DNA of 64,000 nt from Alphaproteobacteria bacterium (GTDB taxonomy: Bacteria > Pseudomonadota > Alphaproteobacteria > MPNO01), in assembly GCA_964291675.2 (NCBI GenBank), contig OZ219866.1, forward strand, positions 3,360,001 to 3,424,000. The letters run 5' to 3'. Positions within the stretch are counted from its first letter, which is position 1. The number at the start of each line of letters is the position of its first letter. The notes beneath the pieces were generated by a model, which ran no database searches, was not told where the DNA came from, and was given only the letters and a program-made list of their open reading frames with translations. Below, piece after piece: positions 5,005-23,240 of the stretch. The position numbers and the translations under genes were made by a program.

Positions 5005-5089
5005 GCGGGTGTGGTGGAACTGGTAGACACGCCGGATTTAGGATCCGGTGGCGCAAGCCATGGGGGTTCGAGTCCCTCCGCCCGCACCA
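5005..5089 (+). tRNA. tRNA-Leu (anticodon TAG)
   Basis: GCGGGTG/CGCCCGC acceptor stem, CCGGA-TTTAGGA-TCCGG anticodon arm, long variable arm, GGTTCGAGTCC, 3' CCA. Confidence 0.95.
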
Positions 5090-5125: not shown

Positions 5126-6481
5126 ATGCAAGTCACCCAGATCAGCGCCGACGGGCTCAAGCGGGCCTACCGCATCAGCGTCCCCGCCGCCGACATCGAG
5201 GACAAGGTGGTCGCCCGGCTGACCGATCTCGGCCGCGAGGCGCGCATCCCCGGCTTCCGCGCCGGCAAGGCGCCGCTCGCCATCTTGCGCCGGCGCTTCG
5301 GCGAGGCGGTCAGGGGCGAAATTCTGCAATCGGCGATCGTGGATGCGACGCAGAGCGCGATCGATGGCGAGGGCATCCGCCCGGCCATGCAGCCCGACAT
5401 CGAGGACCTCGAATTCGAGGACGGCAAGGACCTCGAATACACGCTTGCGCTGGAGCTGATGCCCGAGATCGAGCCGCCCGACCTCGCGGCGCTCGCGCTG
5501 GAGCGCATGGTGGTCGCGGTCGACGAGGCGCGGGTCGAGGAGGCGATCGGCCGCCTCGCCGAACGGCACCGGCATTTCAGCCCGGCGGCCGACGGCGCGG
5601 CGGCCGCCGACGGCGACGAGCTGGTGATCGACTTCGAGGGCAGCATCGACGGCGAGCCCTTCGAGGGCGGCGCGGCGGAGGATTTCGTGCTCCGCCTGGG
5701 CTCGGACCGCTTCGTCCCCGGCTTCGAGGCGCAGCTCGTCGGCGCGCGGGCGGGCGATGAGAAGACCGTCGCGATCGACTTCCCCGACGACTACCCGAAC
5801 GACGCGCTCGCCGGCAAGGCGGCGAGCTTCGCCGTCGCCGTCAAGGAGTTGCGCAGCGCCGACGCGCTCCTGATCGACGACGCGCTCGCCAAGCATCTCG
5901 GCGCCGAGGACCTCGATGCGCTCAGGACCGCGATCCGGGGACAGATCGAGGACGAGTTCGCCAGCCTCTCGCGCGCCCGGCTCAAGCGCTCGCTGCTCGA
6001 CACGCTGGCCGAGCGCGACGGGTTCGACCTGCCGCCCGGCATGGTGGAGCGCGAGTTCGAGACCATCTGGAGCCAGGTCGAGGAGGCGAAGCGGAAGGGC
6101 GATCTCGACGCCGACGACGAGGCGCTCGCCGAGGACGAGCTGCGGGCGCGCTACCGCACCATCGCCGAGCGCCGGGTCCGCCTCGCGCTGATCCTGTCGG
6201 AGATCGGCCGGGCCAACAACATCCAGGTGAGCGAGGACGAGCTCAACCGGGCGATGATGGAGCAGGCCCGCATGATGCCCGACCGGGCGGCGCAGGTCTT
6301 CGAGTTCTACCGCGACAACCCCGACGCGATGCAGTCGCTGCAGGCGCCGATCTTCGAGGACAAGGTGGTGGATTTCGTCATCGAGATGGCGCAGGTGACG
6401 GAGCGCGCGGTCGAGCTCGACGAGCTCACCGCCGAGCCCGCCGATGGGGACGCCGCGCCGGAGGAGGGGCAGGACGGATGA
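5126..6481 (+). CDS. tig: Trigger factor
   Basis: PGFRAGKAP ribosome-binding signature, FKBP domain (IDFEG, FVPGFE, FPDDY), [11 protein letters not shown]. Confidence 0.97.
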
Positions 6482-7124
6482 GCACGGACGCGAGGATGAA
6501 CGCCCTGGTGCCGATGGTGGTCGAGCAGACCAACCGCGGCGAGCGGGCCTACGACATCTTCTCCCGGCTGCTGAAGGAGCGCATAATCTTCCTGATCGGC
6601 GGGGTCGACGATGCGGTCGCCTCGCTGATCTGCGCCCAGATGCTGTATCTCGAATCGGAGAACCCGACCAAGGACATCGCGTTCTACGTCAACTCGCCGG
6701 GCGGGCTGGTGACCTCGGGGCTCGCGGTCTACGACACCATGCAGTACATCCGCCCGGAGATCTCGACGGTGTGCATCGGCCAGGCCGCCTCGATGGGCTC
6801 GCTGCTGCTGGCCGCCGGCGCCAAGGGCAAGCGCTACTCGCTGCCGCATGCGCGGATCATGGTGCACCAGCCCTCGGGCGGGTTCCAGGGCCAGGCCTCC
6901 GACATCGAGATCCACGCGCGCGAGATCCTGACCCTGCGCGGGAGGCTCAACCGGATCTATGTCGAGCACACCGGCCAGGACATCGGCACCATCGAGGAGG
7001 CGATGGAGCGCGACCGCTTCCTGTCGCCCGACGACGCCAAGGCGTTCGGCATCATCGACGAGGTCGTCGCCAGCCGCCCCGCCCCCGAGGCCGAGCCCGC
7101 CAGCGGCGGGTGAAGGGGGGGGAC
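6146..7124 (+). repeat. Direct repeat copy 1 (tig 3' end + clpP)
   Basis: Near-identical to 11719-12698 at offset 5573; I counted about 9 substitutions by eye. Confidence 0.95.
6478..7113 (+). CDS. clpP: ATP-dependent Clp protease proteolytic subunit, copy 1
   Basis: [30 protein letters not shown]. Confidence 0.98.
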
Positions 7125-7452
7125 CCGTCCGTCGTTTCGACCGCAGCTCCAAAGACGCGAAGCGGAAAGAGCCGTTGCTTGAGGGGCAGGACGCCTCCGC
7201 CCCGCGCGGACGCCCCGCCGTTCCCGAAAGCCATCATCCCTGGCCGCCGGGAGAGGCAACTGTCAGGCGATTGCCCTATCTGTACAAACCGAAGGCGATT
7301 GAGGTCGCCGTCACATCCACGACAAGTTCTTCCACTAACCAACTAGTCGGCCATTCTCGGAACAGGCGCTAATTGTGTCGGAATGTCATAACACGATCTT
7401 GTTGTGAGCAATGGCGAGCCAATACGCGCCAGGACGTCAGCGTTGCCCCGTA

Positions 7453-7875
7453 CTACTTGTTTCCCGCCGCCACCAAGTGCGGCCTGAATCCCGACTCGTC
7501 CGGCATGATCTCCGTGTAATGGCAGTACCCCTCTGCCGTACGAACTTCCGCCGCCCGTTCGATCCACTTCTGAGTCCGTAGAAGGCCAACGAACAGCGTC
7601 AGCGCATTGCCATCCTGAATTCGGTGGAACGTCTCTCGCGTGTACATCCCGAACGACAGGAAACTACGCCGCCGAGGAGGACCCCCCTCTTTGCCGACGA
7701 CTTCCAGCAGTGTGCCTCTGAGCACGATCCCGAAGGCTAATGCCCACGGGTGGCTGTGCAAGCGCTCAGTGCTCTCCTGACCGCCGTATTGGTGTACGTA
7801 AACTGTAATCCAATGCCCGCGCAGCCCACGCCGATGGAGCCACGAGCCTTGAATTTTTACGTTGATGGTTCTCAT
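7453..7875 (-). CDS. Small cupin-fold protein
   Basis: RLHSHPW...IVLRG...E and FHRI...LTLFV match cupin motifs 1 and 2; GAGGA RBS; last gene of the cassette. Confidence 0.65.
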   Translation of the reverse strand: MRTINVKIQGSWLHRRGLRGHWITVYVHQYGGQESTERLHSHPWALAFGIVLRGTLLEVVGKEGGPPRRRSFLSFGMYTRETFHRIQDGNALTLFVGLLRTQKWIERAAEVRTAEGYCHYTEIMPDESGFRPHLVAAGNK

Positions 7876-7880
7876 GTCCT

Positions 7881-8588
7881 CTACGTCTTACCCGCTGCGC
7901 CCTCGACCCCTGATGTCGAAGCGATGCACGCACCTGCCCACCGCCAGCTGTCGATGAGTCCAATGCATCGCTCGATCACGGCTCGGCTGGTTAGAGAGCT
8001 GTCTACTATCGCATCGGCCGCCAAAGGCAACTTGTCCGTCATGTCTGCTTCGACGACATGACTTGACGCCCTGTCGAAGTCCTCCGATTCCGTGGCAGAT
8101 CGTTCTCCGACCCGGATCGAGCGCAATCTGGAGTCCGTCTCCAGGTAAATCATGCGCATCTCAGAAGGTGCCGCCATCCGAATGAGATGCGGCAGCACGT
8201 CGACATGCCGCACGCCGTCCAACACGAAATCCTCGCCGGGAACGAACCCTCCCGCTGCTAGCACGTCCCTGCAAAACGCCTCCGCGTCTTGCTCAATCCG
8301 GTATTGACCAAGATCTTGAAGCAACTCCCGGCAATCGGGATCGCTCCCGCGCGCTGCCAACACGTTGCTCAGGTAGCCGCCAAAGCTGGTGTACCCACAC
8401 CCCAGGGCTTTCGCGACCGCGACGCTTGTCGAGGTCTTGCCGCTGCCGATCTTTCCCGAAAAGCACACGAGCACGGCATTCGGCATTATCCGGGCGGAAT
8501 CCGTATCAGTACCAGACACCTCGTGCCCGGTCTGTGTGCCGCCTTCCGCGGCTCCGTCCGTGCTCATCTCGGGTCTCCCTCGCTCCAC
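7881..8588 (-). CDS. P-loop nucleotide-monophosphate-kinase-like protein (start uncertain)
   Basis: Walker A SGKIGSGKTS, RELLQDLG, VLDGVRH and ADAIVDS follow the dNMP/dephospho-CoA kinase-like pattern. Confidence 0.8.
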   Translation of the reverse strand: MERGRPEMSTDGAAEGGTQTGHEVSGTDTDSARIMPNAVLVCFSGKIGSGKTSTSVAVAKALGCGYTSFGGYLSNVLAARGSDPDCRELLQDLGQYRIEQDAEAFCRDVLAAGGFVPGEDFVLDGVRHVDVLPHLIRMAAPSEMRMIYLETDSRLRSIRVGERSATESEDFDRASSHVVEADMTDKLPLAADAIVDSSLTSRAVIERCIGLIDSWRWAGACIASTSGVEGAAGKT

Positions 8589-8653
8589 TGGTTACAGCTC
8601 TCCACCGATCGCGTCTCATGAATTTCGCCGTCCCATCGACCACGCTCTCACGC

Positions 8654-9247
8654 TCACCAAACCGAGGGAGGAGCTTGTCGCAGGTTCGGCACCTTGACGG
8701 GTATCTCTGCCAACTCGGGCAGACGATCGTCAAGAAAACAATCCACCAGTGCAGCGCAGTACTCCTGCTCCTCGGCGGTCAATTCCCTGCCTTTCGGAAT
8801 GTTATGCCAGTACTCAAGGCAGGTCCGGCAACATGTGGCCGTCGCGTGCTGGGCGTAGAATATGGCGTTCCCTTCGAACGGCGTCTGGCGTCCGTCCCGG
8901 GCGGGCTGCGCAGGAGCGAGATACTTGGTGAGCCGGTGCCGTGCCGCCTCTTTGAGCCGAATTCGACCCTTCCGCTGTGCATGCCGAACAGCCTTCTCGT
9001 CAAGTTTCCTGTGGAAGAAGTAGTGCCGGATCATCTCGTTCCTTAAAGCCGCGAAGGTGTACTCGACATCACCGAAGTCGCGCACGTGAAGCCTATTCCA
9101 GTCCACAAGATCAGCACCGCAGTACCGGCACCTCCCGCGTTGCTCCTGGGTCATCTTCTTCAGCTGTTTGAAGCAATGCAGATCATTCTCGCAGTCCGCC
9201 GACGTGCACTTGATGTTGAGGGGTGGCGGTCTTTGAAACTCGGGCAT
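8654..9247 (-). CDS. DUF4186 family protein with a Cys-rich N-terminal extension
   Basis: DGRQTP..GNAIFYAQHATATCCRTCLEYWHNIPKGRELT matches DUF4186; extra CTSADC..HC and CRYC; GAGGAG RBS. Confidence 0.85.
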   Translation of the reverse strand: MPEFQRPPPLNIKCTSADCENDLHCFKQLKKMTQEQRGRCRYCGADLVDWNRLHVRDFGDVEYTFAALRNEMIRHYFFHRKLDEKAVRHAQRKGRIRLKEAARHRLTKYLAPAQPARDGRQTPFEGNAIFYAQHATATCCRTCLEYWHNIPKGRELTAEEQEYCAALVDCFLDDRLPELAEIPVKVPNLRQAPPSVW

Positions 9248-9257
9248 TCGGATCTCC

Positions 9258-10712
9258 TCAATTCAGCGCACGATCAAGCAAAGAGCGATCGATTTCGTCT
9301 TCGATATGGTACGGATACCGCTCAAAAAATACGTCGCGCGCGACGGTCCACGGGTCTTCGTCCTCGCGCTGAAGCTTGGCAGCCGCACCCCACCAGTCGA
9401 GGCCCTGCCGGGACAACCGGAAGGCCAGGTAGTTCGCGAGCGCGCCGACGCTCACTCCCCGCTTCTTCGCCACTCGCCGGACCACACGTTGCAATCGCGG
9501 GATCATGTTGTTGGCCTGTGCAACGCAATCCTCGGCGAGTTCGTTCGCCTTGCCATCTAGCATCACGTCTCCGGCAAACTGGCTGGCCGCGATCTCCTCA
9601 TCCGATTCCCGACGTTCGCTGGACGTTGCTTCCGCCTCAACCAGCTCGAATGCCTGTTCGTCAGGCCGTTGCGCCGCATGGAACACCTCGTGGAGCAGAT
9701 CAAACGTCCAACGCGCTTCATGCCTCGACGTCTGCTTCAGCACGATCGCGTTACGGCCCTCGTAGCGCCAACACGCGCCGTGGAAAGTCCCTGTTCCCCT
9801 GAGTGGAAGCACAACCACCCCAAGGTCCCACACCGTGTGAAGAACCGTGCGGAGATCGTCCCTTCCCTCGCCGCGAGCCAAAATCTTCTTTCGCATTTCG
9901 CCCGGATCGGTCGGGATTGACTCAATAGGGTAGCCGGCCATCCCCCGTATGGCCACGACGGCCAGGTGATTGGCGTAGGTCGCGAAGAGTCCTGCGGCGC
10001 CCTCGTCACGTCGCTTCGGCATCTTGAAACGTGCGGCAGCCGCCGCCGTCATAGGTGCGGGCAATGCTTGAGCGCCGAAGATGTCGTCGCGCCTCCATCC
10101 GAAGACGCGCTCCAGCGCGGCTGCCGCTTTCGCGGTCAGTCTCTGGTCATTCCACTGATCCGGCACTTCGCCATCTGCGATGGCGGCATCCGCTGAACAC
10201 AACAAGCGTTCCACCACGAAGTCCCGACCCAGCCCCACCTGGCTGACCTTCGCGAGGAACCCCTTGAAGCTATCCGGCACGACGGGAAGTAGAATTTCGT
10301 TTTCTATCCGTAGCTCCAGGGCGCGCGCTACCTGGCACAGTCGCTGGTAGCTTGCGGACGCATAGCGCTCCGCCTCGTATCGTTGGATCTGCTGTTCCTT
10401 GAGATTTAGACGTTGCGCAAGCGCCCGTTGGCTGAGACCCCCTGCGATCCTGGCCTTGATCAAGCCATCCGCAAGTTCTTCGAACGAGCCTACTGAAATG
10501 ACTGACACCTCGGCTGATTTCAACTGCTCGTATTCCTCCAACTCTTCCCGCAGGTCTTCCAGTTGGCTCTCCATGGCCTCTCGTTCGGCCTGCACGAGCC
10601 TTGGATGCACGTCTGCCCGGTTGTCCGATTTGACATCGAATTCCTCGATTGCACGGGCAAAGCCGTGCGCCTTCTTTCGCGTGATTCGGTACTGTCTCTC
10701 GTTGGTGATCAT
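9258..10712 (-). CDS. XRE-family HTH protein fused to an ImmA/IrrE-type metallopeptidase
   Basis: MITNERQY N-terminus; ARIAGGLSQRALAQRLNLKEQQIQRYE HTH; FDLLHEVFH (HExxH) and EEIAASQFA. ATGA overlap with the upstream gene. Confidence 0.88.
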   Translation of the reverse strand: MITNERQYRITRKKAHGFARAIEEFDVKSDNRADVHPRLVQAEREAMESQLEDLREELEEYEQLKSAEVSVISVGSFEELADGLIKARIAGGLSQRALAQRLNLKEQQIQRYEAERYASASYQRLCQVARALELRIENEILLPVVPDSFKGFLAKVSQVGLGRDFVVERLLCSADAAIADGEVPDQWNDQRLTAKAAAALERVFGWRRDDIFGAQALPAPMTAAAAARFKMPKRRDEGAAGLFATYANHLAVVAIRGMAGYPIESIPTDPGEMRKKILARGEGRDDLRTVLHTVWDLGVVVLPLRGTGTFHGACWRYEGRNAIVLKQTSRHEARWTFDLLHEVFHAAQRPDEQAFELVEAEATSSERRESDEEIAASQFAGDVMLDGKANELAEDCVAQANNMIPRLQRVVRRVAKKRGVSVGALANYLAFRLSRQGLDWWGAAAKLQREDEDPWTVARDVFFERYPYHIEDEIDRSLLDRALN

Positions 10713-11146
10713 GGCAAACTCCCCAGATCGATCAGCACGACGCCTTTTTGGACGCCGTTGCGGTCGGTCATAAAGAAGTCTCGAAAGAGCACTCCCGGCG
10801 CGGCACGTGCCGACGCCGGGAAGAGGTCTCCGAGATATTTCGCTTTCATCGCCGCCCGGGGGTGCTCCAAGTCGAGAAGCACCGGGTCCAATCGGTTCAG
10901 ATCGACACCCGCCGTTTCCCAAGCGGCGTCGTAATCCCCCGGCAGCGCCTTGGCCGTAACGAAGCTCCCGTCCAGCAACAGCTTCGCGCATCCGGCCATC
11001 GCCAAGTTGCGGCACGCAGCCAGCAAACCTTCCATCAGTCGAGCGCGATGGCTATTGCCAGCGAAGCGACGGGCGACATCGTGCCACCCAGCATCGTGGA
11101 TGCCTGGTGGGAGGTAGCCGGTCTTGGAGTCAAGTTTGGGTATCAC
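10709..11146 (-). CDS. DUF6932-like putative Pol-beta-superfamily nucleotidyltransferase
   Basis: GYLPPGIH, LLDGSFVTAK..PGDYD (GS + DxD), DR.GVQKGVV. Start GTG 11146 or ATG 11176. Confidence 0.8.
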   Translation of the reverse strand: MIPKLDSKTGYLPPGIHDAGWHDVARRFAGNSHRARLMEGLLAACRNLAMAGCAKLLLDGSFVTAKALPGDYDAAWETAGVDLNRLDPVLLDLEHPRAAMKAKYLGDLFPASARAAPGVLFRDFFMTDRNGVQKGVVLIDLGSLP

Positions 11147-11319
11147 ACACCCAACTATATTGTTGTGTAGAATCATGTCAACCCCAACGCCCCGTCCCCG
11201 ACTGCCACCCCGCACAAGGCCGGGGCGACAGGTTGGGCGCGAGCGGCGGCGTGGGCATTCCGGCCGCCATTGGCGAGAAAATCGGGCTTGCCGGCCTCGT
11301 CGCCGGCTTCCGTCGCGGT

Positions 11320-11718
11320 CATTTCCGGCAACACGCCCAGCAGCACCAGGGCGTCGCGGAGATCGGGGTCGTGGGCGGCGGCCCTTCGCGGATCGTTCGC
11401 GTCGAAGCGGTCTCACAGCGGGGCGGCCGGCGTGGGCTTTCGGTAGGTCGGCCACAGCTCTCGCAAGCGGCTCTCGGCGTGTTCCGCGGCCGGAAAATGT
11501 GCTTCGCGGCAGGGGTGATGCCGGACCAGCAGGCCTTCAAGCTTCGGCCTGAGATAGACCAACGGCAAGTCCCCGAGGCCGGGCACGGTTTCCGGGTCGC
11601 GGCCGGCGACGCGGTCCGCCGCGAGCCGGTCGGCGTCCGGGAAGACCAGCGCCCCGCTGTCCCGCATCCGCTGATCGTTGCGCCGCCGCCGGCGGTCGAC
11701 GGCGAATTCGACGACCGC
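11320..11718 (-). pseudogene. RloB-like gene remnant (middle and C-terminal part)
   Basis: Reads [39 protein letters not shown], in-frame TGA at 11413-15, then RAAAHDPDLRDAL. The 5' part is cut by the tig duplicate; DNA is similar to 14875-14955. Confidence 0.6.
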
Positions 11719-12054
11719 GCGCGCTACCGCACCATCGCCGAGCGCCGGGTCCGCCTCGCGCTGATCCTGTCGGAGATCGGCCGGGCCAACAACATCCAGG
11801 TGAGCGAGGACGAGCTCAACCGGGCGATGATGGAGCAGGCCCGCATGATGCCCGACCGGGCGGCGCAGGTCTTCGAGTTCTACCGCGACAACCCCGACGC
11901 GATGCAGTCGCTGCAGGCGCCGATCTTCGAGGACAAGGTGGTGGATTTCGTCATCGAGATGGCGCAGGTGACGGACCGCGCGGTCGAGCTCGACGAGCTC
12001 ACCGCCGAGCCCGCCGATGGGGACGCCGCGCCGGAGGAGGGGCAGGACGGATGA
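11719..12054 (+). pseudogene. tig: Duplicated 3' fragment of tig
   Basis: Same protein as the tig C-terminus from [10 protein letters not shown] onward, except one E to D change; no N-terminus. Confidence 0.92.
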
Positions 12055-12686
12055 GCACCGACGCGAGGATGAACGCCCTGGTGCCGATGGTGGTCGAGCA
12101 GACCAACCGCGGCGAGCGGGCCTACGACATCTTCTCCCGGCTGTTGAAGGAGCGCATAATCTTCCTGATCGGCGGGGTCGACGATGCGGTCGCCTCGCTG
12201 ATCTGCGCCCAGATGCTGTATCTCGAATCGGAGAACCCGACCAAGGACATCGCCTTCTACGTCAACTCGCCGGGCGGGCTGGTGACCTCGGGGCTCGCGG
12301 TCTACGACACCATGCAGTACATCCGCCCGGAGATCTCGACGGTGTGCATCGGCCAGGCCGCCTCGATGGGCTCGCTGCTGCTGGCCGCCGGCGCCAAGGG
12401 CAAGCGCTACTCGCTGCCGCATGCGCGGATCATGGTGCACCAGCCCTCGGGCGGGTTCCAGGGCCAGGCCTCCGACATCGAGATCCACGCGCGCGAGATC
12501 CTGACCCTGCGCGGCAGGCTCAACCAGATCTATGTCGAGCACACCGGCCAGGACATCGGCACCATCGAGGAGGCGATGGAGCGCGACCGCTTCCTGTCGC
12601 CCGACGACGCCAAGGCGTTCGGCATCATCGACGAGGTCGTCACCAGCCGCCCCGCCCCGGAGGCCGAGGCCGCCAGCGGCGGGTGA
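12051..12686 (+). CDS. clpP: ATP-dependent Clp protease proteolytic subunit, copy 2
   Basis: 211 aa; differs from copy 1 by R/Q, A/T and P/A substitutions. Confidence 0.97.
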
Positions 12687-12809
12687 AGGGGGGGGGACGG
12701 AGAGCAGGCCGAGGCCGGCCACGCCACCCCGTACCGTTCACAGCGCATTTGCGGCGCGGCGTATCGAGGGACCGCCGCGCCCCTTGCCAACGCCCCGCCG
12801 TTTCCCGCA

Positions 12810-13590
12810 TCCCGTCATGCCCGGCCCCCGGATCGAGTTCGGGGGTGATCCGGGCACCAACTGCCGCCGCCGGCACAACGCCCCCCGTCGGGCGAGGCTG
12901 TGGCAGCAGTGGGTGGCCGGTACGGCCCCGCTCATCCCCCCCGTCATGGCCGGACTTGATCCGGCCATCCATGCGGCGTCCCCGCCTGCGAGGCGGCCGG
13001 CGGGAAGGGGCGGCGGCGCCAGTGGATGCCCGGATCAAGTCCGGGCATGACGATGGGGGGAGGCATGGCGCTGGGGCGGGGAACGCCGGGCGCGATCCGC
13101 GTCGAAGGCTAAACCGGACAGCAGTGGACTTGATCCGGGCATCCACTGGCGCCGCCGCTCCTCCCGACGGGGCGTTGTACCGGTGGCGCCAGTGGTTGCG
13201 CGGATCGAGTCCGCGCATGGATGGCCGGATCAAGTCCGGCCATGACGGGGTGGTGAAGATGGGGGGTGAAGTTGGGGGGACGAGGCGTCCCTCGATGCGC
13301 GGCTTCGCCGCTACTCACGATGAGGGCGAGGCTTGGGCCGGGCACCGACTGCTGCCGCCGGCACATCGGCCCGTCGGGCGCGGCTGTGGCGCCAGTGGGT
13401 GGCCGATACGGCCCCGCTCATCCCCCCCGTCATGCCCGGACTTGATCCGGGCATCCACTGCCGCCGCCGGCACATCGGCCCGTCGAGCGCGGCTGTGGCG
13501 CCAGTTGGTGGCCGGATCACCCCCGGACTCGATCCGGGGGCCGGCCATGACGAGGGGGGTGAAGATGGGGGGTGACGATGGGGGGCCGGA
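12810..13590. repeat. Mosaic cluster of REP-like palindromes containing a ~312-bp composite unit (13131-13442)
   Basis: Many GTCATG(G/C)CCGG..GATC..CCGG(G/C)CATGAC palindromes and one family-B REP; the unit recurs at 16408 and 16721. Confidence 0.85.
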
Positions 13591-14115
13591 TCAGCCCGAC
13601 GGCCGATGTCGGAACAGGCCGAGCCCGAGGCTTCGACGCAGGGTCAATTGCCGGCGTCGGTATTTCTGGAAATACAGGATGAGGTCCGCCGCCTCCTGCT
13701 GGACCGCCATGGCGCGGGAGACATCGATGGCGCGATCGTCGACCTCGTAGTCCGGCCCTCCGGTCGTCAGGTCCCCGAATTCGACCAAGCGCTTCGCATG
13801 CGTGAGAGGGTCGTCTCTCGAGGCGCGTGCCAACTCTACCGCGAGCCCATTGAGACGGCGAAAGAGTCCGACGAGGCGCGCTTCGGCCTGCCGGTCGCTG
13901 AGGTCGTCGATCTTCAGCCAGTAGTTGGTCGAAATTTCCGCCGCCTGCAGTATCGCGCCCCGGAGTTCGTCGTATCGCTGGGAGTGCTCGTCGACCCTGC
14001 TTTGCCAGACGCGAATGGCGAGGGCGGCGAACCATCCCAACAGGAAAGCGAGCAGGAGCTTGACGCCGTCCGACGTCAAACTCAGCCAAGGGTCTGGTGG
14101 CGGAGGTTCCGGCAA
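13591..14115 (-). CDS. Hypothetical protein with an N-terminal transmembrane helix
   Basis: VKLLLAFLLGWFAALAIRVW TM segment then a helical domain; follows the STAS-like gene. Start uncertain (TTG 14115). Confidence 0.65.
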   Translation of the reverse strand: MPEPPPPDPWLSLTSDGVKLLLAFLLGWFAALAIRVWQSRVDEHSQRYDELRGAILQAAEISTNYWLKIDDLSDRQAEARLVGLFRRLNGLAVELARASRDDPLTHAKRLVEFGDLTTGGPDYEVDDRAIDVSRAMAVQQEAADLILYFQKYRRRQLTLRRSLGLGLFRHRPSG

Positions 14116-14146: not shown

Positions 14147-14485
14147 CTATTGCGGTCGCGCGTTGTCCATGTACCGGTTCGCGGACAACCGATAGGTCTC
14201 GTAGAGCGGGTCCAACGCCTTGAGTTCAAGGTGGCGCTTCACCTGTTCGCGGCCGAACAGGCGCCGACGGATCAGTCCGCCGAATGCTTCCTCCAGGAAC
14301 GACGAACCGTAGCCGTGGGTTCCGTCCAGTACGATGACCAGCTTGTCGTCCGACCCAATGGCCCTCCCCAGCAGATGGCCGAGCACATCGTCGCGGAACT
14401 CTTCGCCGCTATAGGGTCCGTGTTTCCTGAAGCGCCCTCCCGGCGTCGTCGAGAACTCGTCCGCGATTCTGTAGGTCATCGCCAT
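14147..14485 (-). CDS. STAS-like domain protein (DUF4325)
   Basis: FSTTPGGRF...SGEEFR...LDGTHGYGSSFLEEAFGGL signature. Confidence 0.88.
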   Translation of the reverse strand: MAMTYRIADEFSTTPGGRFRKHGPYSGEEFRDDVLGHLLGRAIGSDDKLVIVLDGTHGYGSSFLEEAFGGLIRRRLFGREQVKRHLELKALDPLYETYRLSANRYMDNARPQ

Positions 14486-14489
14486 CCTG

Positions 14490-14862
14490 CCGCGCTCCCA
14501 CCAAAGCCGGAAACGCCAACGAACCGGCGTACCGCCGATCGAGCGATCGAGGGTTTCCGCCGTTTCGCCAGTACCCTTCCGATATATGTACCGTCCCCTT
14601 CTTGACAAGATTTGCGGGGACCCGAACGCAGCGCGATCTTTCGTTCCCGCATCTGCGCCGAGTCGCAGCCGCGTCCCGGCTCCTCGTAGGCACTGCGGCC
14701 CGCCGCCCAGGCCGCCCGGATACGCAGGCCGTCGTTTGCCGAGTCGAGACCCATCGCATTCGCGGACCGTTCCAGCCATTGACGCGCAAGTTCGCGCCGG
14801 CCGGAGTGCGGCAGCGCAGCGGGGGTGGCCGCTCCCGGATCGAGGAATATCGCCTCCAATGC
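14490..14862 (-). pseudogene. 3' remnant of the HATPase-like gene that typically precedes DUF4325
   Basis: IFLDPGAATPAALP (G1-like) and GRSAYEEPGRG (G2-like) in one frame; ILSRRGRYIY..SIGGTPVRWRF in another; frameshifted and 5'-deleted. Confidence 0.55.
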
Positions 14863-14864
14863 GC

Positions 14865-15008
14865 ACCCGGCGGCGCGGTCCGCCGCGAGCCGGTCGGCGT
14901 CGAGGAAGACCGGCGCCCCGCCGTCCCGCATCCGCGACCCGTTGCGCCGTCGCCTTCCGCCGCGGCGAAGATGCGTCGGCGGCGCGCGATGGGCCTGCGC
15001 GGCGGCAC
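14865..15008 (-). pseudogene. RloB-like gene remnant (N-terminus with internal deletion)
   Basis: MPPRRPIARRRRIFAAAEGDG starts 3 bp after the ATPase stop, then shifts frame to [12 protein letters not shown]. Confidence 0.6.
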
Positions 15009-15011
15009 GGG

Positions 15012-16220
15012 TCAGCCGAGCGAGGGCAGCCCGCCCAGCGCGCCGCCGCGGTAGAGCTTTCGGAGATCGGCGCCCCGGCGCAGCCCCGCGACATCGCGCA
15101 CGCCATAGGCCTGGGTGGCTCCTTCCCGGTCCTTCTCGACGATGAACACCTCTTCCTTTTCCAGGTCGTCGAGCGCCGACAGGCCGTGCAGCGAGCAGAT
15201 AAGCTGTGCGTTACGGGGGTTGGTGTCTTCGCGCCGGAACCAGCCCAAAATCTCGTCCACCAGGTCGGCGTGCAGGTCGTTGTCGAGCGCGTCCATTACC
15301 GCCAGCCCGCCGGATTCGAGCGCGTTGTCGAGCGCCGGAAATACTTGCACGGCCTGACGGGTCCCGGCGGACTCCCCTTCGAAGGTCACTGGCATGCCGA
15401 GACCGGAATGGGCAAAGACCAGGTACCAGTTCCCGTTACCCGCCTGAACCACGTTCATGCTCTCGATCCCGAGATCGAATCGTTCGAACCTGTCGGAGAT
15501 TCGTTTCCTCGCTCCGGGGGTTTCCCGGAAATAGGCGGTTATGGCGCGGTCCGAGAGGCGCATCGGTTCGACCGCCGTGACGTTCGTTTGCACCCCGTCC
15601 AAATCGTCCACCATCGCTGAAAACGTCTCGACGCCCATACGGGAAAGGGTCGACAGGGCCGAGGCGTCCCGCGGAACCGAGGCGAGCCGGTCGTCGCTCG
15701 GTCTGATGCCCATGTGCCTCGCGACGTAGACCGGTCCATCGCCGCGGCGTTCCATCAACCGCCGGGGCCGGCCCCGCGGGAAATCGTGCAGCGCCTCGTA
15801 GCCCACGGCGCCGGGTTTGAAATCCCGTGTGTCCCTCCGCAATTCCACGGTGTAGCGGTACACGTCATTGGGCGCGTCCGGGCCGGAGAGCGGCCAGGGC
15901 GCGTCGAAACCCATTTCGACCCGGGTGGGCTTGCGCAGGGAGTCCTCGGAGGCAAACGCGTTGAAGCCTCCGAGGGAATCCGGTCCGTCGCCGTAGGAGC
16001 GCACCGCGAAGCGAACCGTATCCGCCAGCGCCCGCAAACAGGCCGACTTCCCCGACCCGTTGGGGCCGATCAGCGCAACCGCGGCCGGAACCCGGAGGTC
16101 GGACCGCGCGGTGGGGCGGCGCAGCCACGGCCGCTCCGGCGTGGTCCCCGGGACGCGGAAGTCCAGCGTGACCTCGTCCCGTATAGATCGGTAGTTGTTG
16201 ACCTTGATCCAGTGCAACAT
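15012..16220 (-). CDS. ABC-type AAA_21 ATPase (RloA/AbiEii-like)
   Basis: NYRSI, GPNGSGKS, ESAGT signature, QLICSLH. Walker B reads VMDALD rather than DE, so it may be degenerate. Confidence 0.88.
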   Translation of the reverse strand: MLHWIKVNNYRSIRDEVTLDFRVPGTTPERPWLRRPTARSDLRVPAAVALIGPNGSGKSACLRALADTVRFAVRSYGDGPDSLGGFNAFASEDSLRKPTRVEMGFDAPWPLSGPDAPNDVYRYTVELRRDTRDFKPGAVGYEALHDFPRGRPRRLMERRGDGPVYVARHMGIRPSDDRLASVPRDASALSTLSRMGVETFSAMVDDLDGVQTNVTAVEPMRLSDRAITAYFRETPGARKRISDRFERFDLGIESMNVVQAGNGNWYLVFAHSGLGMPVTFEGESAGTRQAVQVFPALDNALESGGLAVMDALDNDLHADLVDEILGWFRREDTNPRNAQLICSLHGLSALDDLEKEEVFIVEKDREGATQAYGVRDVAGLRRGADLRKLYRGGALGGLPSLG

Positions 16221-21776: not shown

Positions 21777-23042
<1,266 letters not shown>

Positions 23043-23049
23043 TCGGGGG

Positions 23050-23240
23050 GCCGTCCTTCGATACGCCCCCTGCGGGGGCTACTCAGGATGAGGGTGGTTG
23101 TTGGCCGTCCATAACCCACCCTCATCCTGAGTAGCGGCGAAGCCGCGTATCGAAGGACGCCCGCTCAGGATGGTGGGCGGGTCCGCCAAGGCCCTTCCCT
23201 CATCCCGAGTAGGCGCCGCAGGCGCCGTATCGAGGGACCG
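23050..23240. repeat. REP family-B inverted pair plus an extra copy
   Basis: CCTTCGATACG...CTACTCAGGATGAGG followed by CCTCATCCTGAGTAG...CGTATCGAAGG. Confidence 0.85.

Follow-up and report, generated by a model that had tools for sequence, protein, structure and literature searches.

What does a compact, GC-poor gene cassette lying between two copies of clpP do for the alphaproteobacterium that carries it? We address this question for a 64,000-nucleotide stretch of Alphaproteobacteria bacterium DNA (the window; contig OZ219866.1, positions 3,360,001 to 3,424,000; all coordinates given without a locus name are window positions), in which positions 7453-11146 hold five intact, closely packed open reading frames (ORFs) in the same orientation on the minus strand, arranged A-B-C-D-E. 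Judged by sequence comparison, these genes make up a genuine and conserved functional unit, in which a switch made of an Xre-type peptidase and a nucleotidyltransferase is joined to a DUF4186 protein, a kinase and an exchangeable enzyme module. We predict, with a confidence a little above even, that it is a horizontally acquired, self-contained conflict operon acting as an inducible anti-phage or abortive-infection system. The five genes are as follows.

10709-11146, minus strand: gene A, a minimal Pol-beta-type nucleotidyltransferase of family DUF6932, 145 residues, GTG start.
9258-10712, minus strand: gene B, an Xre/Cro-type helix-turn-helix (HTH) domain joined to an ImmA/IrrE-like HExxH metallopeptidase, 484 residues.
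8654-9247, minus strand: gene C, an N-terminal Cys-rich ribbon followed by DUF4186, 197 residues.
7881-8567 (to 8588 with an upstream GTG), minus strand: gene D, a P-loop protein with a predicted nucleoside monophosphate (NMP) kinase fold, 228 residues (235 with the GTG).
7453-7875, minus strand: gene E, a predicted cupin from a small family without a Pfam model, 140 residues.

The ATG of gene B overlaps the stop codon of A (ATGA, 10709-10712; 4 bp), and the intergenic gaps measure 10 bp between B and C, 5 bp between D and E, and 65-86 bp between C and D depending on the start of D, for which the ATG at 8567 is favored because a GGGAG lies 7 nucleotides before it. An earlier note on this DNA had described the five minus-strand ORFs, the overlap and the two short gaps accurately, leaving the C/D gap unmentioned, and its domain calls hold for all five proteins (a DUF6932 nucleotidyltransferase, HTH plus HExxH, DUF4186, a match to NMP-kinase profiles, and a cupin fold). 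It was also right that the cassette is less GC-rich than its host, the GC fraction being 0.596-0.617 over 7001-11000 (about 0.60 for the cassette) against 0.68-0.75 on both sides. The description of the genes as intact among pseudogenes survives in its first half only: they are intact, but only one gene in the vicinity is clearly broken, a second tig cut short (11716-12054).

Gene A matches Pfam family DUF6932 (E-value of 7.3e-30) and the PADLOC model PDC-M63A (6.8e-10, 37 bits). Its residues D69-G70-S71-F72, P79, D81 and D83, numbered on a 155-residue form that starts at an upstream ATG, are invariant in 34 of 34 relatives and provide the hG[GS] and DxD motifs of Pol-beta enzymes, motifs by which A belongs to the Pol-beta nucleotidyltransferase superfamily. 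Searches of the PDB with the single sequence or the family profile return no relative. Pfam and PADLOC give no AbiEii, NTP_transf_2, HEPN or CD-NTase match for A and no HEPN gene in the cassette, and A does not fall within the AbiE, MenT or HEPN-MNT systems.

Gene B begins with HigA-like N-terminal helices, continues with an HTH domain (approximately residues 84-137) and ends in the peptidase. The HTH is recognized by Pfam HTH_3 (3.5e-7, 30.6 bits against a cut-off of 23), and the B profile reaches the 434 Cro/repressor structures in the PDB at approximately 1e-3. The antitoxin model RmrA of PADLOC matches B on the peptidase core (5e-7, 27 bits) and on the HTH (1e-4), and the spr1629 antitoxin family of NCBIfam matches at 6.8e-6. 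Within the HExxH motif, H341 is kept in 33 of 34 relatives, and E342 and H345 in all 34. Single-sequence searches of the PDB yielded nothing useful for B, D or E. Natural fusions of B and C occur in two clusters at 90% identity, P0189 (672 residues) and P0190 (644 residues), of which P0189 aligns over residues 1-478 to B at 4e-100 and over residues 495-670 to C at 1e-82; for single records, read-through across the 10-bp gap is a possible source of such fusions.

Gene C consists of a DUF4186 domain (Pfam, 1.7e-34; 1133 homologues) preceded by the Cys-rich ribbon. Eleven cysteine and histidine positions are invariant in 16 sequences (C14, C19, H24, C25, C40, H134, C139, C140, C143, H148 and C164). 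The AlphaFold2 (AF2) model built from these 16 sequences is poor (pLDDT 61), and Foldseek found nothing in the PDB below an E-value of 0.38; the C profile returned only insignificant zinc-finger matches from the PDB, and a search of the Atlas gave only DUF4186 clusters. DUF4186 also occurs fused to a superfamily 1 (SF1) helicase in P0191 and to an N6_N4 DNA methylase in P0193, fusions that hint at a nucleic-acid role for the domain. Escherichia coli YneG is a stand-alone DUF4186 protein that shares the core and a conserved ATCCRxC motif with C, although YneG-type proteins have only about 110-120 residues and lack the N-terminal ribbon. In the accessible parts of the literature found, the only mention of DUF4186 is as this E. 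coli orphan (PMC9283627, PMC11502571).

The enzymatic end of the cassette is formed by D and E. D matches AAA_18 (Pfam, 5.6e-6) and the deoxynucleoside monophosphate kinase family phrog_139 (6.5e-4), and its family profile finds the adenylate kinase 1z83 (1.3e-5, residues 3-139) and the AdkA-like structure 3lw7 (2.9e-5, residues 6-179) in the PDB, along with dephospho-CoA kinase and cytidylate kinase. All 29 sequences keep G50-K51 and R127-H128, and on the profile matches we assign D an NMP-kinase fold. The E protein has no Pfam match but matches the phage family phrog_4786, 'cysteine dioxygenase' (7e-9). Its AF2 model (pLDDT 83) matches 67 PDB chains at an E-value of 1e-3 or better, all of them cupins among the matches listed, with a probability of 1.00 to many and TM scores of 0.43-0.54; on this model, E is a member of the cupin superfamily. 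Five residues, H40, H42, E58, H84 and H119, are invariant in 26 sequences, and this His-rich site would be expected to bind a metal. The family is small, with 65 close homologues and 130 representatives out of 1.84 billion; of 76 more distant relatives, 74 have no Pfam match, the others including a weak Cupin_2 match, and one Sel1 fusion and one NUDIX fusion are found. For at least 17 of the 65 homologues, the longest contig has the same size as that of a match to C, which suggests shared contigs.

Directly upstream of A lies a regulatory region with three elements.

11176-11181, minus strand: -35 hexamer TTGACA of a near-consensus operon promoter.
11154-11159, minus strand: -10 hexamer TATAGT, inside the palindrome.
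11149-11168, no strand assigned: candidate operator, a 20-bp palindrome ACACAAC-N6-GTTGTGT with 1 mismatch, centered on the -10 hexamer.

The two hexamers are separated by a 16-nucleotide spacer and make 11 of 12 consensus matches. This is the sole promoter-like site over 7000-11900, although shuffled sequences average 1.0 such sites, so the count itself is not significant; a TTGAC-type hexamer stands at the same position in most of the upstream sequences of relatives that were compared. The palindrome is more distinctive. It was observed once in the window against 0.02 expected; 31 of 34 loci carry a copy with at most 2 mismatches in the 45 nucleotides before A, and the 983,353 bases of the 80 loci described below contain no further match on either strand. 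It remains recognizable in loci from Actinomycetota, Chloroflexota, Planctomycetota and Thorarchaeota, and an operator of 20 bp kept from proteobacteria to an archaeal metagenome-assembled genome (MAG) offers an unusually clean regulatory handle. As B is the sole DNA-binding protein encoded, autorepression is the natural reading, and B most likely binds this palindrome and represses the operon.

The same region fixes the start of A. The ATG at 11176 was rejected as a start codon: it falls inside the -35 hexamer, whereas the GTG form, which begins MIPK, fits the family consensus MIPxxDxxTGYLPPG, the N-terminus on which 24 relatives agree. Both points place the right end of A at 11146, the GTG boundary adopted in the earlier note. 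The palindrome ends 2 nucleotides before this GTG, and since the start codon comes directly after the promoter and palindrome, the operon mRNA is probably leaderless.

To place the cassette among its relatives, we used an alignment of C homologues to scan one genome for each of 185,579 species, which returned 80 loci. In 38 of them the match to C includes the N-terminal ribbon, and B stands directly upstream of this ribbon-type C in all 38. A is present in 34 of the 38 (two of the four misses lie at contig ends) and D follows downstream in 31 (three misses at contig ends), but E is found in only 5. One further locus, L035, has a partial ribbon-type C without B, and in the 41 loci with only a short DUF4186 core, mostly actinobacterial, A, B, D and E are absent throughout (0/41), so that YneG-type genes stand apart from the cassette. 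The hosts span Alpha-, Beta- and Gammaproteobacteria, Acidobacteriota, Bacillota, Planctomycetota, Actinomycetota, Chloroflexota and one Thorarchaeota MAG, and cyanobacterial plasmids carry the genes as well; of 72,556 plasmid records, 7 have a full-length B, and these same 7 hold C at a coverage of at least 92%. Co-occurrence of the genes elsewhere, which the earlier note had proposed as a check, is thus confirmed, the gene order recurring in 38 loci of other genomes. The conserved unit is, however, the linkage of A, B, C and the kinase, and not the cupin-containing five-gene form.

The place of the cupin is usually held by something else. Of the 38 loci, 28 have a radical S-adenosylmethionine (radical-SAM) gene after C, usually succeeded by a methyltransferase-like protein of about 444 residues with FGTPG and DPPW motifs, and then by an ASCH protein of about 167 residues, as annotated by PGAP. 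We take FGTPG and DPPW to be typical motifs I and IV of N6/N4 methyltransferases. The wider operon therefore reads A-B-C-radical SAM-(DPPW methyltransferase-like)-(ASCH)-kinase, with 5-7 genes in relatives. In a midpoint-rooted tree of B, the cupin-type cassettes group together (100/100) with several decayed stubs, in which A and B are followed by a remnant of C, and their sister group is an alphaproteobacterial clade of the radical-SAM type (99/96). Because the cupin clade is nested within radical-SAM diversity, the form in the window is derived: on this tree, it is a reduced variant of a seven-gene operon that has no name, with the cupin in place of the radical-SAM module.

Only three loci have all five genes intact, at 53-83% protein identity: the window, L003 (Acidobacteriota) and L005 (Pseudomonadales). 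In comparison with the latter two, every one of the five genes in the window has a ratio of non-synonymous to synonymous change (pN/pS) of 0.21-0.49, synonymous sites being near saturation.

Several relatives show further variation around this plan. The Thorarchaeota MAG (L034, 2645-7540) has A-B-C with the same palindrome, the radical-SAM and kinase genes on the opposite strand upstream and a gene of the uracil-DNA glycosylase (UDG) family downstream. In Rhizobium, a DUF763 gene directly follows the kinase on the same strand (L019, 8894-10165; L081, 11947-13209) and may be an eighth operon member in that lineage. In two unrelated alphaproteobacterial loci (L009, 6156-8782; L015, 11004-13777), an HNH_2 endonuclease gene and an ORF of about 620-660 residues without a match lie convergent to the kinase.

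Has this operon been named before? The whole cassette received no name from PADLOC, NCBIfam or PHROG models, nor from a literature search with supplementary tables outside its reach. Nothing was found under DUF6932, and the papers found on ASCH, radical SAM and phage or on ImmA, ASCH and radical SAM do not, in their accessible parts, describe the operon. For the cassette as a whole, the statement that no named system has this composition therefore stands; it does not extend to the A-B pair, as pairs of DUF6932 with an Xre-peptidase exist elsewhere. A-type genes occur in 28 of the 72,556 plasmid records, and in two records without the cassette, A is followed by an Xre/ImmA protein of about 415 residues that is a true PD-Lambda-2_B (4e-74 and 7e-78).

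These two records are plasmid loci. On an Acinetobacter pittii plasmid (L084, 3956-5676), a DUF6932 and PD-Lambda-2_B-type pair comes last in the cargo of a Tn7-like element, next to IS30 and blaNDM-1. On a Rhizobium lentis plasmid (L083, 4001-6817), the pair is followed by a PD-Lambda-2_C gene (5.5e-38) and adjoins a cluster of reverse transcriptase, helicase and TOPRIM genes. These pairs mean that there are PD-lambda-2-like systems in which a nucleotidyltransferase replaces the HigB-like first gene.

By architecture, A-B belongs to the class of a toxin-like gene followed by an Xre-peptidase, of which RosmerTA and PD-lambda-2 are examples. RosmerTA combines varied toxins with an HTH-ImmA antitoxin in an anti-phage module, the toxin gene coming first in 58% of pairs (accessible text of PMC10440598). 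Like RosmerTA, the cassette unites an Xre HTH with an ImmA/IrrE zinc peptidase in a single polypeptide and encodes a small variable partner in the same operon. B thus has the architecture of RmrA, but not close kinship to it (27 bits); it exceeds the RmrA models by about 90 residues and has a HigA-like N-terminal extension. No RmrT model in PADLOC is matched by A at an E-value of 0.1 or better, and whereas RosmerTA has two genes, the cassette adds three to five that are invariably attached.

PD-lambda-2 (Vassallo et al. 2022) is, according to the part of PMC9519451 available, a three-gene abortive-infection system: the Xre-peptidase by itself is toxic, the first gene relieves this toxicity, and defence also needs the third gene. 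A toxin-like first gene, a HigA-like Xre HTH-peptidase and a further component recur in the cassette. PD-lambda-2A is HigB-like rather than a nucleotidyltransferase (same source), whereas A is a DUF6932 protein without a HigB-type match in Pfam, NCBIfam or PADLOC. Against PD-Lambda-2_B, B of the window scores an E-value of only 0.014 (12.7 bits, residues 312-407) and B of L008 scores 9e-5, far from the true members cited above, and we do not count B as a member. The PD-Lambda-2_C model, described as 'beta family' and P4 antitoxin-like, is matched by none of C, D and E, which stand in its place. Although A matches PDC-M63A, no cassette gene matches PDC-M63B in PADLOC at an E-value of 0.1 or better, the B model itself not having been inspected.

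Two other comparisons concern the enzymes and the switch. Relatives of the cassette pair a radical-SAM protein with an NMP-kinase fold, as do viperins with an associated kinase, and D resembles VakA weakly (0.025 in the window, 4e-5 in L022). The radical-SAM proteins of these relatives match pVip and viperin models only over CxxxCxxC (3e-3 and 6e-5), and with 18 bits against a cut-off of 180 bits (NF038283) they are not viperins; the island in the window has no radical-SAM ORF. An HTH repressor and an ImmA-type peptidase acting as a switch before variable effectors also recall CapH/CapP of CBASS and ImmR/ImmA of ICEBs1, except that in B the two are one polypeptide. B of L008 matches capH at 5e-4, and PD-Lambda-2_B-type relatives match capP at about 1e-8. 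The comparison with CapP/CapH that the earlier note drew thus holds as an analogy between switches; it does not carry over to kinship with CBASS, as A is a minimal nucleotidyltransferase of 145 residues without a CD-NTase match, and none of the five proteins matches a CBASS cyclase or effector model in PADLOC.

How might such an operon work? We envisage two layers. The first would be a toxin-antitoxin-like switch, in which a B dimer on the palindrome keeps the operon repressed until a phage or damage cue triggers proteolysis by the B peptidase, so that repression is lifted, a partner is freed, or both, by analogy with ImmA/ImmR, RmrA and PD-lambda-2B. A, which occupies the position of the toxin-like gene, would be the partner that B controls or, conversely, one that controls B. 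The second layer would be the always-attached enzyme module C-D-E. Since C and B are fused in some genomes, the two probably form a single complex, in which C would serve as a sensor or a nucleic-acid-binding adaptor. D and E would act together on a nucleotide or a nucleic-acid base, the cupin taking the place of the oxygen-sensitive radical-SAM/DPPW/ASCH module, although chemical equivalence between the two is speculation.

A bolder form of this proposal, to which we give rather little credence, is that A, B, C and the operator constitute a portable, phylum-spanning immune switch controlling the synthesis of a phage-poisoning modified nucleotide, similar in effect to viperin but made by unrelated enzymes. 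Infection would then inactivate the Xre-peptidase, and the kinase and nucleotidyltransferase would supply a nucleotide to the radical-SAM/methyltransferase-like/ASCH module or, in aerobes such as the host of the window, to the oxygen-using cupin for the equivalent step, yielding a product that poisons phage replication or transcription. If this were so, DUF4186 (the YneG family) would gain its first function, as a sensor or nucleic-acid-binding subunit.

The surroundings of the operon lend the prediction of a conflict role some color. It lies at a different genomic site in every locus, and in 16 of 37 loci, defence or mobile genes are among the two nearest ORFs on either side (restriction-modification, AbiE, Gabija, IetAS, DUF4238, GmrSD/NsnA, HNH, patatin/ApeA, integrase, transposase and conjugation genes), with three further loci giving weaker indications. 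A number of observations weigh against the prediction, however. In the other 21 of 37 loci, all neighbors are housekeeping or unassigned genes, and since the counts carry no background control, the context is only suggestive. PADLOC gives no whole-system match, and the likeness of B to RmrA and to PD-Lambda-2_B is weak at the scores given above. Ribbon-type C is absent from all 50,697 phage records, and neither a PDB profile search nor Foldseek links C to a fold or sequence of known function. PDC-M63AB, the pair behind the only candidate model that A matches, gave no defence in E. coli NILS69 in a native-host test (accessible part of bioRxiv 10.1101/2024.12.20.629700). Finally, the clade of the window is often decayed: 3 of its 7 rows in the B tree have only a stub of C, and L001, L007 and L046 are broken as well, so loss must be frequent.

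Of the rival explanations, the one that fares best, though we regard it as unlikely, is a non-immune modification pathway, in which the operon would mark the cell's own DNA or tRNA by base modification, or make a small nucleoside product, under an Xre repressor. Its enzymes are typical of base-modification clusters (radical SAM, DPPW, a kinase, a nucleotidyltransferase and ASCH, a PUA-like reader of modified bases), and ASCH and AAA_17-type ATPases recur in modified-base operons (accessible text of PMC7641849). The fusions of DUF4186 to a DNA methylase (P0193) and a helicase (P0191) and of a distant cupin relative to NUDIX would also suit such a role. Yet the form in the window lacks the radical-SAM, methyltransferase-like and ASCH genes while its remainder is under purifying selection. 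An ImmA-type peptidase and a toxin-like position for A are hallmarks of switches on mobile elements, not of biosynthetic regulators, and the patchy, horizontal distribution is unlike that of a housekeeping function.

Slightly less probable still is that A-B is a plain toxin-antitoxin pair stabilizing the island, with C, D and E as co-transcribed but unrelated cargo without an immune role. Such an addiction module would explain why A with an Xre-peptidase stands as an independent pair elsewhere, why A and B overlap by 4 bp and why decayed copies often retain A-B only (L037, L051, L032), and an island without mobility genes might need stabilizing. Against this, ribbon-type C is always accompanied by B (38/38), full-length B on plasmids is always accompanied by C (7/7), the two are naturally fused, and D is kept across at least 8 phyla with reading frames that overlap or abut; chance passengers are not expected to remain linked over such distances.

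Very unlikely, lastly, is that the seven-gene operon lost its radical-SAM module by deletion and left the five-gene form behind as a remnant without function: the cupin clade is indeed nested in radical-SAM diversity, many of its members are broken and L002 retains an X2-like ORF between C and D, but the same A-B-C-D-E order is intact in the window, L003 and L005 with pN/pS well below 1 at the values given, all motif residues in the window as well as the promoter and operator are intact, and E was gained, not left over, as the contigs that at least 17 of its 65 homologues appear to share with C suggest.

If the favored reading of an inducible conflict operon is correct, the RosmerTA/PD-lambda-2 class would grow beyond modules of two or three genes to include a switch driving a multi-enzyme, nucleotide-directed module, and DUF4186, DUF6932 and the unmodelled cupin family would obtain their first functional context. 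By exchanging the radical-SAM module for a cupin, one clade has in effect run a natural experiment on which parts the operon cannot do without. Whether or not the operon serves in defence, the strict linkage of A, B, C and the kinase over at least 8 phyla marks a real and undescribed functional unit.

The cassette sits in a low-GC island whose borders are formed by a direct repeat.

7116-11715, no strand assigned: low-GC island of about 4.6 kb, with only the five genes inside.
6143-7115, plus strand: left copy of a direct repeat of about 975 bp, holding the 3' end of tig and clpP.
11716-12690, plus strand: right copy of the same repeat, holding a truncated tig and a second whole clpP.
7294-7309, minus strand: terminator-like hairpin about 145 nucleotides past E, weak, with a count of such sites in the region not above that of shuffled sequences.

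The two repeat copies are about 99% identical, and this region of the genome thus has two intact clpP genes and one truncated tig around the island. The arrangement fits a Campbell-type integration of a circle carrying the island with the tig'-clpP segment, or a duplication, and may also be an assembly artefact. There is no integrase, transposase or other mobility gene in 7116-11715, and in no other locus do tig, clpP or the non-coding flanks of the island lie beside the cassette, so a conserved insertion site was not seen. The C/D gap and the sequence past E showed neither an inverted repeat nor a promoter, and Rfam returned no RNA family over 6900-13800.

Further along the window, 3 kb from the cassette, an AbiLi-type ATPase gene (PADLOC, 2.9e-54) and a DUF4325 (STAS-like) partner occupy 14150-16220 on the minus strand. 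They probably form a defence pair of the AbiL type within the same clpP-clpX gap. Usually clpP is followed by clpX and lon; here, clpX starts only at 21777 and lon at 23115.

A 93-nucleotide segment of 87% identity is common to the spacer upstream of the operon in the island (11598-11690) and the region of the DUF4325 gene (14862-14954). An 84-residue ORF at 11416-11667 was considered as a DUF4325 relative and rejected, as there is no protein match in that frame despite the 93 nucleotides of common DNA. On the other side of the island, a tRNA-Leu(tag) gene at 5005-5089 lies just upstream of tig and is overlapped by the longest tig ORF (GTG at 5048), so the true start of tig is probably further downstream. 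Just past the second clpP, positions 12700-13600 are dense in GC-rich direct and inverted repeats that resemble repetitive extragenic palindromic (REP) elements, with arms of 36-76 nucleotides and 83-98% complementarity.

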